Origin: Candidatus Hadarchaeota archaeon
Lineage (GTDB): Archaea; Hadarchaeota; Hadarchaeia; Hadarchaeales; Hadarchaeaceae
Direction of reading: 5' to 3'
DNA length: 64,000 nt
Assembly: GCA_964343275.1 (NCBI GenBank)
Contig: CAYFIY010000001.1
Coordinates: 49,683-113,682 of the forward strand
Below, in pieces: positions 17,403 to 21,614 of this stretch. The notes beneath the pieces were generated by a model that had not been told where the DNA came from, made no database searches, and saw only the letters and a program-made list of their open reading frames with translations. Position 1 is the first letter of the stretch. The number at the start of each line of letters is the position of its first letter. The position numbers were made by a program, and so were the translations under genes.

Positions 17403-17477
17403 GCCGCCGTGGCTCAGTGGTAGAGCGATGGTTTTGTAAACCATAGGTCGTGAGTCCAATCCTCACCGGCGGCTCCA
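17403..17477 (+). tRNA. tRNA-Thr(UGU), intron-less, CCA encoded
   Basis: Fold: GCCGCCG-TG-GCTC-AGTGGTA-GAGC-G-ATGGT-TTTGTAA-ACCAT-AGGTC-GTGAG-TCCAATC-CTCAC-CGGCGGC-T-CCA. Confidence 0.85.
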
Positions 17478-17498
17478 CGTTTAAGCATCTAAATTCAG

Positions 17499-18287
17499 AT
17501 GACAATTGGTGGTGATATGGCAACGGGATTTGTAGGTCAGATATTTAACTCGATACAGGGGGAGGGGTTATACGCTGGGAGGAGGCAGGTTTTTGTTCGT
17601 TTTGCCGGATGCTCGCTTGATTGCGTATATTGTGATACAGATGGTTTCCGCCAGTTCAAGTTGCCAAAATGCGAGATTGAAACAAGCCCAAGTTCTGGTA
17701 AACTCAATACTGAGTTAAACCCCATGACTCACGCCGCAGTTATCGGCCACTTACGGCGTTTGGTGACCCCTGATATCCACAGCGTATCCCTGACTGGTGG
17801 AGAACCATTGCAGGCAGGGGACTTTTTGTTGGATATCGCCAGAGACTGCAAGCGAGAAGGTTTAGCAACTTATCTCGAGACCAACGGTTCAAACAGCAAT
17901 GCGATGAGGAAAATAGTTCAATATACAGATTTCGCGGCCATCGATATCAAGCTTCCTGAACACCATGCTGTCCCTGCTCATACCTGGCCCAGTTTGCTCC
18001 GGGAAGAATTGTCGTGTGTGAAACTATCGCTCGAAAATGAGGTGGATACTTTTGTTAAGGTTGTGGTGCTTCCTAGAACTAGCGAGAAAATAGTAGCTGG
18101 AGTTTGTAAAAAATTGGTAAAAATTGGGAAGGTTCCTCTGGTGCTTCAACCAGTGTACCCTGCTAGGATGATCAAAAGGTTCCCATCGATGACACACGTT
18201 TATCATATCGCCCAATCTGCGGCCAAGGCGGGCATAAATGAGATAGCAATAATACCTCAAATTAACAAACTTATAGGGGTATTCTGA
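17499..18287 (+). CDS. queE: 7-carboxy-7-deazaguanine synthase QueE (radical SAM)
   Basis: FNSIQGEG...VFVRFAGCSLDCVYCDT radical SAM/QueE signature. Confidence 0.85.
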   Translation: MTIGGDMATGFVGQIFNSIQGEGLYAGRRQVFVRFAGCSLDCVYCDTDGFRQFKLPKCEIETSPSSGKLNTELNPMTHAAVIGHLRRLVTPDIHSVSLTGGEPLQAGDFLLDIARDCKREGLATYLETNGSNSNAMRKIVQYTDFAAIDIKLPEHHAVPAHTWPSLLREELSCVKLSLENEVDTFVKVVVLPRTSEKIVAGVCKKLVKIGKVPLVLQPVYPARMIKRFPSMTHVYHIAQSAAKAGINEIAIIPQINKLIGVF

Positions 18288-18775
18288 TGCGGATCGAGTT
18301 GTCTGAAGGAAGCGGGTTTTCAGCTGCTCACTTCATCTTCGGACACCAGAAGTGCGAGCACTTGCATGGGCACAACTGGCGCCTGAGCGTGACGGTCGAA
18401 GGCGAGCAGAACGAACTAGGCTTGGTTGTCGACTTCCTCGAACTAAAAAGCATCGTAGGTAAAATTTGCGATACCTACGACCATCGTCTTATACTCCCGT
18501 CAAAAAATCAGACCGTAAATGTTCTGTCAAAGGGGAAAAATATCTGCATCTCAGTGGGCGATCGCGAGTTCGAGTTTCCCTGCAAAGATGTCGTCTGGCT
18601 ACCCGCCATCAACACCACGGTTGAGGAGTTTGCGCGAGTGTTCGCCGACGAGATAGTCAAAAGTATGTCAGGTCGTCCGAATGTGGAAAAGATAACAGTT
18701 ACCGTGGAAGAATCGCCTGGATCGAGTGCTAAGGAAGATCGCCGAGTCAAAACCGATCGAAGTTGCAGGTGCTAA
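18287..18775 (+). CDS. queD: 6-carboxy-5,6,7,8-tetrahydropterin synthase QueD (PTPS family)
   Basis: CEHLHGHNW (CxxHGH zinc motif of PTPS); start overlaps the queE stop. Confidence 0.85.
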   Translation: MRIELSEGSGFSAAHFIFGHQKCEHLHGHNWRLSVTVEGEQNELGLVVDFLELKSIVGKICDTYDHRLILPSKNQTVNVLSKGKNICISVGDREFEFPCKDVVWLPAINTTVEEFARVFADEIVKSMSGRPNVEKITVTVEESPGSSAKEDRRVKTDRSCRC

Positions 18776-19203
18776 CTTTGGATGGGGGAACCTATGCCCT
18801 ATTGGTACACGTGCCTTATGAGCTGGCTCTGAAAGTGGGGCAGCTCGGTACGGTCGAATTCAAAAGGGGGTACTACGTGTACGTTGGTTCCGCTCTGGGT
18901 GGACTTTCTGCTCGAGTGCGACGCCATCTGCGCGATAGGAAGAAAATACATTGGCATATAGACCACCTGTTGCTCCACACCCGTGCAATGGATGTGGTGG
19001 CAGCGCGTGGGAAACGTAGAAAGGAGTGTGCGGTGGCTGCTGAGATAGGGAAGCACTTATCGAGCGTCTCTGGGTTCGGATCGAGCGACTGTGACTGTAC
19101 GAGTCATCTTTTTTACTGTCCTGACTTAGACGAACTCCGGAGAATCGTATTTGCAAGTTTCAAGGAATGTGGGGCAAAGTTGGTGAAATCGATAGGACCT
19201 TGA
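18763..19203 (+). CDS. DUF123-like GIY-YIG-fold protein (predicted Uri-superfamily nuclease), tentative
   Basis: GTYALLVHV ... GYYVYVGSA beta-hairpin pair, RRHLRDRK, HWHIDHL motif; 146 aa; overlaps the queD 3' end. Confidence 0.4.
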   Translation: MQVLTLDGGTYALLVHVPYELALKVGQLGTVEFKRGYYVYVGSALGGLSARVRRHLRDRKKIHWHIDHLLLHTRAMDVVAARGKRRKECAVAAEIGKHLSSVSGFGSSDCDCTSHLFYCPDLDELRRIVFASFKECGAKLVKSIGP

Positions 19204-19253: not shown

Positions 19254-19811
19254 ATGATTTTAATGGATCTTGAAGAAGTTGTACGATCGCGTAAAAGCGT
19301 GCGAAAGTTCCAAGACAGATCAGTGGAGGCGGAAAAAATCTCGAAATGTCTTGATGCCGCTCGTCTCGCTCCATCGTGGAAGAATAGGCAGTGCTGGCAC
19401 TTCATAGTCGTGCGGGACAAGGAGACGATCGCCAAGCTAGCCACCAATGTTGCTTGGTCTTGGGCTAAATCTGTGCCGGTGATGATAGCGGCCTGCGGAA
19501 ACCCAGAGTTAAGTGGGAATACCAACGGGCAGATGTATTACTTGGTAGACGTGACAATCGCGATGGAACATTTGGTGCTGGAGGCTGTAAACTTGGGTCT
19601 GGGCACATGCTGGCTCGGGACGTTCGATGAGAGACGAGTTAAGGAGCTATTGAAAATTCCCGAGGAGATTCGCGTGGTTGCACTTACGCCGCTGGGTTAT
19701 CCTCTTCAGAGCAGCGGCGATGAGAGCGAAGGTAGACCACGTAAAAATCTGGTCGAGATTGTGTATGGCGATGAATGGGGAAATCACTTTGACAGGCTTT
19801 CAAGGGAATAA
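19254..19811 (+). CDS. nitroreductase family protein
   Basis: RSRKSVRKF...APSWKNRQCWHFIVV nitroreductase N-terminal signature. Confidence 0.8.
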   Translation: MILMDLEEVVRSRKSVRKFQDRSVEAEKISKCLDAARLAPSWKNRQCWHFIVVRDKETIAKLATNVAWSWAKSVPVMIAACGNPELSGNTNGQMYYLVDVTIAMEHLVLEAVNLGLGTCWLGTFDERRVKELLKIPEEIRVVALTPLGYPLQSSGDESEGRPRKNLVEIVYGDEWGNHFDRLSRE

Positions 19812-19825
19812 TAAATCCCAGAACA

Positions 19826-20452
19826 TTGGGAGTAGCTTTCTTGGGTAAGCGGCGACGTCGAGAACAGAAGCGAGAATATTTCTATCGTGAGGCCAAGAGT
19901 AAAGGATATAGAAGTCGCGCATATTTTAAACTTAAGCAGCTAAGCGAGCGCTATGGTCTCCTTAGGTGCGGGGATGTGATCGTGGACCTCGGCGCAGCTC
20001 CTGGAGGCTGGCTTCAGGCGGCGAGGGAGAAAGTCGGCGACAATGGCTTCGTGTTAGGCGTTGATTTACAGCCGATTGACAAGTTACCTTTTAATAACGT
20101 GGCGACCATGGTTGCAGACGTCACAAATCCACAAACCCGAGGATCAATTAAGGTTAAACTACCGCGCATTGCCGACGCAGTGATCTCAGATGCTTCCCCT
20201 TCCATTTCAGGTGTCTGGGACATCGACCATGTAAGATCGATTGAACTCGCCAGAGCTGCCCTCGGAACAGCAGTTGATATTTTGTCTTTTGGTGGGAAAT
20301 TTTTAGTCAAGGTTTTTCATGGGGAAATGTTCAATGATTTTTTGAGCGAAGTCAAGAAGGTGTTTGATTTTACTAAAGTTTCGAAGCCAGTTGCGTCGCG
20401 CAAGGGGAGCGCAGAAGTTTATGTTATTGGAAAATGGTTCAAGCGCCCCTGA
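19826..20452 (+). CDS. rlmE: rRNA 2'-O-methyltransferase RlmE/FtsJ
   Basis: RSRAYFKLKQL...DLGAAPGGW SAM-binding motifs of FtsJ. Confidence 0.85.
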   Translation: MGVAFLGKRRRREQKREYFYREAKSKGYRSRAYFKLKQLSERYGLLRCGDVIVDLGAAPGGWLQAAREKVGDNGFVLGVDLQPIDKLPFNNVATMVADVTNPQTRGSIKVKLPRIADAVISDASPSISGVWDIDHVRSIELARAALGTAVDILSFGGKFLVKVFHGEMFNDFLSEVKKVFDFTKVSKPVASRKGSAEVYVIGKWFKRP

Positions 20453-21614
20453 AATTTTTAATTATTTCTTCCATGGGCGCGTCTGTTCGAAAACCAGTAT
20501 CTGAGAAATGGGTGCGAGAAGCAAAATAACCGCCATTCCTAATTTTTGATAAAAAAGTAATAATTTTTAATGGATGAATTTTTATGTGGCTTGCCAAGTG
20601 GTTTACTTCAAAATATGCTGGTGGTCCTTCTGCTTCTTCAAGGCAGCGGTTTAAAAGCTGGAGCTCTTGGTGTTTTAACTTGAATTCCATTCTTGATAGA
20701 TCTTCCGTGACTTCCCGAGTGAATTCTCGATCGATTAACTCTCCAAGCCATAATGGGCCGGCATGAAATAATTTATCACCGCATTTGCAGGTTCTTGGTA
20801 GCTCTGCCACCAATCCAAAAGTTAAAGCCCTTCGCATACACGTTTTGCAATGCGAGATGAATCCTATTTTTTTCATGATATTATCAGCGCGCTTGGCACC
20901 CTTCCGCCCTAGCATATAAACTCTGAAGTAGTGCTGCGTGGCATGCGAAAGGACTGGCGTTAAGGCTATTTCATGCATGGCCCCTATGCGTTGCGCAAAA
21001 CCAATGAGTATCCTTATCCCTAGTTCGTGACAGTACTCTGTCTTCAAAGGCATGGCTGCGTACCTACGCAGGCATGCACGGGCGTGAGTACCTGAAAGTG
21101 GTGCGGTGTCGGTGGCGGTTAGTGCGAGCATCCCTCGCCTAGCTAGTGCGCCGCAGGCGGCATCTACGAAAGGGGCAGGTGAGCCGAAGGGGTCTATGTC
21201 CACGAAATTGCACCTACCTAAGTTTTCCCAGAGAACTACGGTGGCATCGGCTGACCGGGCATCGATTAGGTGATTTACCTCGTTCAGTTTAATATTTCGC
21301 TTAATCATTTCAAAAGCTTCTTCAGATCGGTCGTTTACCACAACCCTTGCCACTTTTTCCATTTCCTTGGCATAGCGAATCCCTCTAACTCCGACACCCG
21401 CAAGTGGGTCGCAAGCACAAATCATCTTTAATCTCTTAGCTAGTACTCGCCCCACCGAAACTGAGATGTCTCGGCAGAACTCCATTTTCGGATTATAGAA
21501 CACGCTAGTTAACGACGGCGCGTAGTCCCCGGATTTCGTCTGGAAAAACTTAGGGTCTGGCACATCGATTTTGATCTGCCCTTCGTTGACAAATTTTGTT
21601 TGCATGATTTCCAA
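20439..21614 (-). CDS. trm1: tRNA (guanine26-N2)-dimethyltransferase Trm1
   Basis: EGQIKI...FYNPKMEFCRDISV Trm1 N-terminus and C-terminal Zn cluster (HCKTC...CKCG). Confidence 0.85.
   Translation of the reverse strand: MEIMQTKFVNEGQIKIDVPDPKFFQTKSGDYAPSLTSVFYNPKMEFCRDISVSVGRVLAKRLKMICACDPLAGVGVRGIRYAKEMEKVARVVVNDRSEEAFEMIKRNIKLNEVNHLIDARSADATVVLWENLGRCNFVDIDPFGSPAPFVDAACGALARRGMLALTATDTAPLSGTHARACLRRYAAMPLKTEYCHELGIRILIGFAQRIGAMHEIALTPVLSHATQHYFRVYMLGRKGAKRADNIMKKIGFISHCKTCMRRALTFGLVAELPRTCKCGDKLFHAGPLWLGELIDREFTREVTEDLSRMEFKLKHQELQLLNRCLEEAEGPPAYFEVNHLASHIKIHPLKIITFLSKIRNGGYFASRTHFSDTGFRTDAPMEEIIKNFRGA

Follow-up and report, generated by a model that had tools for sequence, protein, structure and literature searches.

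The 64-kb stretch of DNA analysed here (the window) belongs to a marine Hadarchaeota MAG. A tRNA-Thr (UGU) gene (17403..17477, plus strand), called by ARAGORN and scoring 69.4 bits with the Rfam tRNA model, lies on the same strand as queE and 39 nt before its probable start; it was the sole structured RNA found by the Rfam scan around the cluster, and a tRNA-Thr (UGU) stands 5' of queE at two related loci, L081 and L084, as well. It is followed on the plus strand by a queE-like radical-SAM gene (17517..18287, 256 aa), by queD, encoding a 6-carboxy-5,6,7,8-tetrahydropterin synthase of the PTPS family (18287..18775, 162 aa), and by the gene for a putative GIY-YIG-type nuclease of the family DUF123/COG1833 (18778..19203, 141 aa). 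The three open reading frames of the preliminary description (17499-18287, 18287-18775 and 18763-19203) are all present on this strand, and their products match Radical_SAM/Fer4_12, PTPS and DUF123 in Pfam. Farther downstream, a nitroreductase-family gene (19254..19811, plus strand; PF00881, E 8.7e-32) separates DUF123 from an ftsJ/rlmE-type ribose 2'-O-methyltransferase gene (19826..20452, plus strand; PF01728, E 3e-50), the start of which is placed at 19841 in the database call. The gene trm1, for tRNA N2,N2-dimethylguanosine-26 methyltransferase (20439..21614, minus strand; PF02005, E 2e-113), is convergent with ftsJ and overlaps its end by 14 nt.

The maximal frame of queE begins at ATG 17499 and would encode 262 aa; the start is probably ATG 17517, which gives the 256 aa found in all relatives. 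The product is a probable 7-carboxy-7-deazaguanine synthase. It matches Radical_SAM/Fer4_12 in Pfam (E 7.7e-10), contains both a CX3CX2C cluster and, in its N-terminal part, the motif SIQGEG, and has E. coli QueE (6nhl, E 6e-7) as its closest PDB sequence match. Four of its five best NCBIfam matches are QueE equivalogs, all of them under the cut-off (best 58.8 vs 260.1 bits), and the PFL and NrdG activase models score barely below them. The assignment is further supported by the one-base overlap with queD: the two frames share a base in TGATG (18285-18289), a junction that recurs in the relatives. The identity of queD is seen from its match to PF01242 (E 7.4e-26), from its PDB matches, which are PTPS/QueD structures, and from the QueD signature CxxxHGH of the COG0720 literature, present as KCEHLHGHNW; its score with TIGR03367 (QueD) is 77.1 bits, just under the cut-off of 89.25.

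QueD produces CPH4 from H2NTP, and QueE turns this CPH4 into CDG, two of the preQ0 steps on the way to tRNA archaeosine, and the QueD, QueE and QueC steps of preQ0 synthesis require no nuclease. With adjoining queE and queD, their one-base overlap and the motifs CxxxHGH, CX3CX2C and SIQGEG, the locus resembles the canonical queCDE/archaeosine precursor clusters. It differs from them in that queC, folE and arcTGT are found neither in the cluster nor in the window, in that both QueE and QueD fall under the NCBIfam equivalog cut-offs, and in that deep-branching Hadarchaeota have queD alone at the DUF123 locus. The earlier statement that QueC is not in the window agrees with a test by motif only, in which no ORF of the window showed the PP-loop SGGxDS; QueC, ArcTGT and the remaining steps would be encoded elsewhere in the genome.

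It had also been proposed that each start in the queE-queD-DUF123 series overlaps the preceding stop. This holds for queE and queD; for queD and DUF123, alignment of the junction with three relatives (L081, L082 and L084) indicates TTG 18778 as the conserved start, 2 nt past the queD stop (18773-18775). A Shine-Dalgarno-like AGGTG within the 3' end of queD (18767-18771, plus strand) precedes this codon by 6 nt and aligns with GGAGG in the same three loci. The alternative upstream starts, GTG 18769 (144 aa, database call P0001) and TTG 18763 (146 aa), both overlap queD. The two genes are thus tightly packed, and their overlap hinges on the start codon picked; it is not demonstrated, because the homology-backed start falls after the queD stop.

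The DUF123 product matches PF01986, equivalent to COG1833, over profile positions 1-95 of 95 (E 1.5e-28; 99.5 bits vs a cut-off of 25), as do all 21 relatives aligned with it. There are 605 homologues with a typical length of 141 aa, and at least 585 matches occur among GTDB species genomes. The initial recognition of a DUF123-like, GIY-YIG-like protein was therefore correct: the family assignment is confident, and the family has been placed in the GIY-YIG superfamily, where it was described as uncharacterised, with a His/Cys-rich C-terminal extension, a fusion to Endonuclease III in Methanococcales and a predicted role in BER or NER (PMC1564403). COG1833 was still among the uncharacterised families in 2025 (PMC11893778), and our literature search for DUF123, COG1833, PF01986 and MJ0613 returned neither functional work nor a biochemical account of any COG1833 member; the 'DUF123' of PMC2936402, which refers to a serine-hydrolase structure (3BDV), seems to have no connection with the family. 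Like other members of this 'Uri superfamily endonuclease' family, the window protein is a stand-alone, full-length match of about 141 aa with the pattern GTY...YVGSA...RxxRH...HWHID...E and a C-terminal FGSSDCxCxSHLFY His/Cys cluster. The protein itself is no different from the rest of the family; only its gene context, with queD 5' and ftsJ 3', is peculiar to Hadarchaeota.

In the numbering of the 144-aa form, the product contains the HWHIDHL motif and the GTY and YVYVGSA strands. Residues Y36, Y38, G40, S41, A42, R49, R52, H53 and W62, together with H63, D65, E86, C87, D107, C108, C110 and H113, are invariant over 21 diverse members, and GTY (7-9), YVG (38-40), R49 and H53 show little or no variation in these sequences. 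In hhalign, residues 37-65 (VYVGSA..R..RH..H) paired with positions 16-44 of I-TevI, a catalytic segment (E 3.6e-4), and PF01541 (GIY-YIG) was matched weakly by 5 of the 21 members (best E 7.8e-4). E86 stands, like the metal-binding Glu that opens the second core helix of GIY-YIG nucleases, at the N-terminus of a predicted helix (86-94; AF2 model, pLDDT 88.9), and we infer that it is the equivalent of I-TevI Glu75. The canonical C-terminal Asn of GIY-YIG enzymes (motif E) is missing, with D107 and the Cys-His cluster in its place; replacement of this Asn by a His/Cys cluster is already known for the whole of COG1833 (PMC1564403). Structural searches with the product gave no GIY-YIG nucleases above background. 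From these features the protein may be considered a metal-dependent phosphodiesterase of the GIY-YIG type and a putative nuclease, in which the active site would comprise the Tyr of the GTY strand, the Tyr of the YVG strand, Arg49, His53, His61/63 and Glu86, while the invariant Cys87/Cys108/Cys110/His113 cluster would form a metal site, probably for zinc.

The linkage is not confined to this genome, as eight other Hadarchaeota loci share it. The order queE-queD-DUF123-ftsJ occurs at four related Hadarchaeota loci besides the window and the order queD-DUF123-ftsJ in four deep-branching Hadarchaeota, so that queD adjoins DUF123 in 9 of the 16 loci of the phylum. The constant partner of DUF123 is, however, ftsJ/rlmE and not queD: the pairing with ftsJ is present in all 16 loci, ftsJ is directly 3' of DUF123 in 15/15 loci besides the window, and a nested clade has kept DUF123-ftsJ while losing the queD adjacency. 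In most loci trm1 adjoins ftsJ. The core [queD]-DUF123-ftsJ is found in at least five upstream contexts (TIM-tRNA-queE, thermosome, FBP aldolase/phosphatase, TFB and HAD hydrolase), and despite these rearranged flanks DUF123 and ftsJ overlap by 8-17 nt in most loci. In the window's own clade the gap between them has widened to 63-126 nt; the nitroreductase insertion is species-specific, being present in four assemblies of the window's species and absent from 15/15 other Hadarchaeota loci. In the DUF123 tree the queD-linked proteins branch off at the base, so this arrangement is old within the phylum.

Outside Hadarchaeota the picture is quite different. A census with phmmer and family HMMs covered 80 species-representative loci, the best 80 of at least 585 genomes with DUF123, and in none of the 74 that came from other archaeal and bacterial lineages was PTPS/QueD encoded within 8 kb of DUF123. 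Conservation of DUF123 with queCDE across archaea is thus not supported by these loci, and one Hadarchaeota clade has itself lost the queD adjacency. The sole true QueE near DUF123 in those 74 loci lies 4.5 kb off, in an ANME-1 genome (L040); the other QueE-like neighbours, in Thermoplasmatota and others, are NrdG or glycyl-radical enzyme activases. Pfam analysis of 100 immediate same-strand neighbours gave FtsJ 15, His_Phos 9, PTPS 8, DUF4342 7, CutA 6 and Mrp/ParA 5, and this tally, together with clustering of the ORFs within 3.5 kb, revealed lineage-specific partners only and no universal operon partner. In six Dehalococcoidia loci polA lies downstream of DUF123 on the same strand, and ThiI-like and methyltransferase genes are close to it in some other non-Hadarchaeota lineages. 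Neither FtsJ nor PTPS was found adjoining DUF123 in the loci sampled outside Hadarchaeota.

We consider it fairly probable that the locus is a Hadarchaeota-specific housekeeping operon, of the form (tRNA-Thr)-queE-queD-DUF123-(nitroreductase)-ftsJ and convergent with trm1, which includes an uncharacterised nuclease, probably directed at DNA and uninvolved in 7-deazaguanine chemistry. The nuclease would be co-transcribed and co-expressed with its neighbours without taking part in their chemistry, and its adjacency to queD would represent gene order inherited within one phylum. Because this order is kept in one phylum only, it points to a lineage-specific operon, and it is not evidence for the nuclease working in the deazaguanine pathway. 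The substrate would most likely be DNA in a repair-type role, as was earlier predicted from the Endonuclease III fusion. The window protein shares the GIY-YIG/His-Cys module of those fusion proteins of Methanococcales, MJ0613 and MMP0538 (PMC1564403). Unlike them it lacks an HhH-GPD domain and is not flanked by an endonuclease III gene, and the window locus does not directly support a BER partnership. A second fusion with a nuclease domain, SfsA-DUF123, is found in four bacterial loci.

Since the core survives in varied contexts, with frames that are often overlapping or near-abutting, the data suggest selection for co-expression with RNA-modification genes and not pure inertia, which counts against a merely inherited arrangement. 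The Hadarchaeota COG1833 protein could instead be a nuclease acting on tRNA or rRNA, with a part in the maturation, turnover or quality control of modified RNA, and co-regulated with QueD/QueE, FtsJ/RlmE and Trm1. The four neighbours that can be recognised all serve RNA modification, the cluster opens with a tRNA gene, and both the age of the queD-linked arrangement and the persistence of the DUF123-ftsJ pair in its mostly overlapping form agree with such a role, as do the ThiI-like and methyltransferase neighbours in some other lineages. Bacterial Slx1-like GIY-YIG proteins are likewise fused or paired with RNA or DNA methyltransferases (TrmH, COG4123), and the fusion with a TrmH-type tRNA 2'-O-methyltransferase has been read as a hint of an RNA role (PMC1564403). 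The likeness extends to a ribose 2'-O-methyltransferase-type partner; the window family is, however, COG1833 and not Slx1, FtsJ is a Rossmann and not a SPOUT enzyme, and the association is an operon adjacency in one phylum with no fusion. Moreover, FtsJ and PTPS are both non-adjacent to DUF123 outside Hadarchaeota, the known fusions of DUF123 are to DNA-acting or DNA-binding domains (EndoIII and SfsA), and the widened gap and nitroreductase insertion in the window's clade argue against tight coupling. Archaeal operons, in addition, frequently combine unrelated housekeeping genes. On this balance an RNA-linked nuclease appears possible but rather unlikely. We are more doubtful about the broader proposition that COG1833, in Hadarchaeota and possibly more widely, is RNA-directed and not a DNA-repair family, and that it cooperates with the modification of tRNA and rRNA (archaeosine, ribose 2'-O-methylation, m2,2G), for instance by processing modified tRNA or keeping watch over it.

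The preliminary description had further suggested a link to deazapurine modification of tRNA or DNA. In the DNA variant of this idea, the nuclease would be modification-dependent or modification-protected and would belong to a Dpd-like or restriction-like system using the preQ0 made with QueD and QueE. Restriction and modification-dependent systems do include GIY-YIG nucleases, and one PDB match, 9u75, is a 5hmC-specific GIY-YIG enzyme; at the locus itself, the queE-queD adjacency in the window's clade is the only evidence. The cluster contains no DpdA/TGT-like or QueC gene, the PADLOC defence search gave no match, a viral-contig scan (pattern matches only) gave no DUF123 relative, and literature searches found neither a link between GIY-YIG enzymes and 7-deazaguanine nor a reported connection of DUF123 with archaeosine in Hadarchaeota. 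What surrounds the locus is a set of conserved core genes (TIM, TFB, thermosome, Trm1) rather than a variable island, and DUF123 is a widespread single-copy gene of the housekeeping type, with its many GTDB matches. We therefore regard this link as highly improbable. Another way to account for the His/Cys cluster in place of the canonical Asn, for the background-level structural matches to GIY-YIG nucleases and for the lack of any reported activity in the literature searched is that DUF123 is not a nuclease at all, and that a GIY-YIG-like scaffold serves to bind nucleic acid or metal, for instance in a regulatory or binding protein that depends on Zn and whose function is unrelated to the neighbours. 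The Tyr, Arg, His and Glu residues that are catalytic in I-TevI are nevertheless invariant in archaeal and bacterial DUF123, which would be hard to explain without catalysis and makes this option quite unlikely.

From the point of view of the archaeosine pathway these results change nothing, as no additional enzyme is required and the linkage is limited to Hadarchaeota. COG1833/DUF123, in turn, has been recognised as a GIY-YIG family since 1999-2006 without a demonstrated activity or substrate. If it were indeed RNA-directed, this would account for the phylum-wide queD-DUF123-ftsJ/trm1 cluster and would provide the family with its first function. That DUF123 shares an operon with RNA-modification genes throughout the phylum offers a modest new hint in this respect, and it could point substrate tests to tRNA and rRNA besides damaged DNA.

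Three co-directional open reading frames lie on the + strand at 17499-18287, 18287-18775 and 18763-19203, as the preliminary description had it. The first product matches Pfam Radical_SAM and Fer4_12, and carries a CX3CX2C cluster and the N-terminal pattern SIQGEG...GC..DC.YCDT. Its top NCBIfam matches are the QueE equivalogs, far under their cut-offs (58.8 bits vs 260), with the PFL and NrdG activase models scoring slightly lower, and among PDB sequences the protein comes closest to E. coli QueE (6nhl, E 6e-7). Translation most likely starts at ATG 17517, since the resulting 256 aa would match the calls in every relative. The second product is a PTPS protein (Pfam, E 7.4e-26) with the CxxxHGH motif present as KCEHLHGHNW, and it scores 77 bits on the NCBIfam QueD equivalog model, slightly below the cut-off of 89. 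Among solved structures it is nearest to the PTPS of Plasmodium (1y13 and 2a0s, E about 2e-18); bacterial QueD 4ntm is a far weaker match (E 5e-5) despite the QueD-type motif. A motif test found no PP-loop SGGxDS among the ORFs of the 64-kb window, so that QueC is apparently absent from it, in agreement with the first reading.

That reading also held that each start overlaps the preceding stop. This is true of queE and queD, which have one base in common (TGATG), as in close relatives, but doubtful for queD and DUF123. In an alignment of this junction with three relatives, the latter have GGAGG downstream of the queD stop, and next a start codon that is either GTG or TTG; the corresponding window positions are AGGTG (18767-18771) and TTG 18778, with the queD stop (18773-18775) between them. 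The aligned start would thus leave a gap of 2 nt, with the SD inside queD, and would make no overlap. The 141-aa product from TTG 18778 has the usual family length and opens MDGGTYALL (compare MDPGIYALL in the relative P0009).

The assignment of the third protein to DUF123 was confirmed by an end-to-end match to PF01986 (E 1.5e-28, 99.5 bits vs a cut-off of 25). The family (COG1833; about 150 aa, mainly archaeal with scattered bacterial members) was put in the GIY-YIG nuclease superfamily by Aravind and colleagues and then by Dunin-Horkawicz, Feder and Bujnicki; no function of it had been characterised, and a part in BER or NER was proposed (PMC1564403). A 2025 paper still gives it only by name, as a family (PMC11893778), and we found no biochemical study of it in the literature. 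Across 21 aligned members, down to 42% identity, Y36, Y38, G40, S41, A42, R49, R52, H53, W62, H63, D65, E86, C87, F103, G104, S106, D107, C108, C110 and H113 are invariant (numbering of the 144-aa form from GTG 18769), and PF01541 gives weak matches in 5 of the 21. In a profile comparison VYVGSA..R..RH..H aligns with I-TevI residues 16-44, which contain Tyr17, Arg27, His31 and His40; the alignment counts as a lead rather than as proof. The AlphaFold model, a confident one (pLDDT 88.9), runs strand, hairpin insert, strand, helix, helix, strand, helix. In structural searches GIY-YIG nucleases did not rise above background (best Foldseek E vs PDB 0.28), and superfamily membership therefore rests on the motifs and the published profile analyses. 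C87, C108, C110 and H113 of the gene product (18778-19203) are fixed across archaeal and bacterial DUF123 proteins and look like a Cys3-His metal site beside the predicted catalytic Glu86; the 2006 paper termed the Cys/His residues 'semi-conserved' (PMC1564403).

Sixteen Hadarchaeota loci, the window included, were compared. The window clade (window and loci L081-L084; 70-76% DUF123 identity in the relatives) has the order tRNA, queE, queD, DUF123, ftsJ, trm1. In deep-branching L005, L006, L088 and L089 (47-53% identity to the window) queE is missing, and queD, DUF123 and ftsJ come after either a thermosome gene or one for FBP aldolase/phosphatase. DUF123, ftsJ and trm1 without queD are found in a nested clade (L001-L004, L085, L086; 60-67%), with TFB upstream wherever inspected, and in L087 (57%), with a HAD hydrolase gene upstream. 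The queD linkage thus recurs and is not unique to this genome. In a neighbour-joining tree, of low resolution because the protein is short, queD-linked members are basal and in the window clade; queD-DUF123-ftsJ looks ancestral in Hadarchaeota and lost once or twice, with queE apparently gained in the window clade. The ftsJ gene lies 3' of DUF123 in 16/16 loci, the frames overlapping by 8-17 nt or nearly abutting in most; in the window clade 63-126 nt separate the two, a widened gap that in the window species houses a nitroreductase gene.

This nitroreductase-family gene (19254-19811; top NCBIfam match BluB-like, far under cut-off) is followed by the FtsJ/RlmE-type methyltransferase gene (19826-20452) and the convergent trm1 (20439-21614); the last two overlap tail to tail by 14 nt (20439-20452), as in most Hadarchaeota relatives. 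The identical gene order, nitroreductase included, recurs in four assemblies of the window species, and the gene is absent from this position in the 15 other loci. P0001, at 99% identity the nearest database DUF123, derives from assemblies of marine metagenomes, TARA among them, and the next-nearest relatives from MAGs annotated as Hadarchaeota, Hadesarchaea or Hadarchaeaceae. A same-strand tRNA-Thr(UGU) (17403-17477) stands immediately upstream of queE, at 39-60 nt in the window (17403-17517), L081 (4603-4738) and L084 (4628-4761). The gap offers scant space for an archaeal promoter, so that tRNA and operon may share one transcript, later split by processing. An 88-nt tRNA-Tyr call at 617-704, whose length suggests an intron, adjoins a radical-SAM gene (722-1531) on the opposite strand. 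At the site where the relatives of L082 carry tRNA-Thr, L082 itself gives a comparable 'tRNA-Tyr' call of 89 nt.

Conservation of the queD/queE linkage across archaea was not borne out. Among the best 80 of at least 585 species genomes matching DUF123, single-sequence and family HMM searches found no PTPS gene within 8 kb at any of 74 non-Hadarchaeota loci, which include Methanobacteria, Methanocellales, ANME-1, Archaeoglobi, Thermoplasmatota, Halobacteria, DPANN, Heimdallarchaeota, Crenarchaeota, Dehalococcoidia, Spirochaetes and others. NCBIfam resolved the QueE-like matches near DUF123 in Thermoplasmatota and elsewhere as NrdG or as activases of glycyl-radical enzymes; the single true orthologue lies 4.5 kb off in an ANME-1 genome (L040). 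Partners among 100 immediate same-strand neighbours (Pfam) are lineage-specific only: FtsJ (15) and PTPS (8), all in Hadarchaeota, and, by ORF clustering, His_Phos_1 (9) and DUF4342 (7) at Dehalococcoidia-type and CutA1 (6) and Mrp/ParA (5) at Thermoplasmatota-type loci. The sole recurring DNA-metabolism neighbourhood observed is a one-strand string of DUF4342, DUF123, histidine phosphatase and polA in Dehalococcoidia and other Chloroflexi (L008, L011, L016, L021, L047, L062).

A tie of COG1833 to deazaguanine-modified DNA, raised in the preliminary description, has no support: a defence-system search gave no match, and a pattern-match scan of viral contigs found no relatives. The position of COG1833 beside queD is best read as no pointer to a 7-deazaguanine role, since to our knowledge that chemistry requires no nuclease and no such association was seen at the 74 loci from other lineages. 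The main rival is an RNA-linked role: the queD-DUF123-ftsJ(-trm1) core survives at least five different flanking contexts, every identifiable partner in it modifies RNA, and a fusion of GIY-YIG with TrmH in bacteria offers a loose precedent. This context, however, was not found outside Hadarchaeota, the DUF123-ftsJ junction is loosened in the window's own clade, and the DUF123 fusions are of DNA type. One joins COG1833 to Endonuclease III in Methanococcales (MJ0613, MMP0538) and was the only fusion reported in the 2006 survey (PMC1564403). By its domain assignments SfsA-DUF123 is the second such case in which the partner domain is nucleic-acid-directed; it combines a PD-(D/E)XK 'RE domain', an OB domain and DUF123, hence two nuclease-type domains per chain, at four bacterial loci (L035 2139-3335; L048 7329-8432; L075 7263-8414; L066 7650-8411) in Deltaproteobacteria, Caldatribacterium and Spirochaetes.

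The gene observation thus stands with its start codons corrected, and its interpretation only in part. We found no prior report of the Hadarchaeota queD-DUF123-ftsJ order in the literature. The locus holds a further member of a known, uncharacterised family in a gene order limited to Hadarchaeota, and is best explained as an inherited housekeeping operon specific to this phylum, in which QueD and QueE would produce the archaeosine precursor, while the COG1833 protein would act independently as a predicted metal-dependent, probably DNA-directed nuclease with a structural Cys3-His site.
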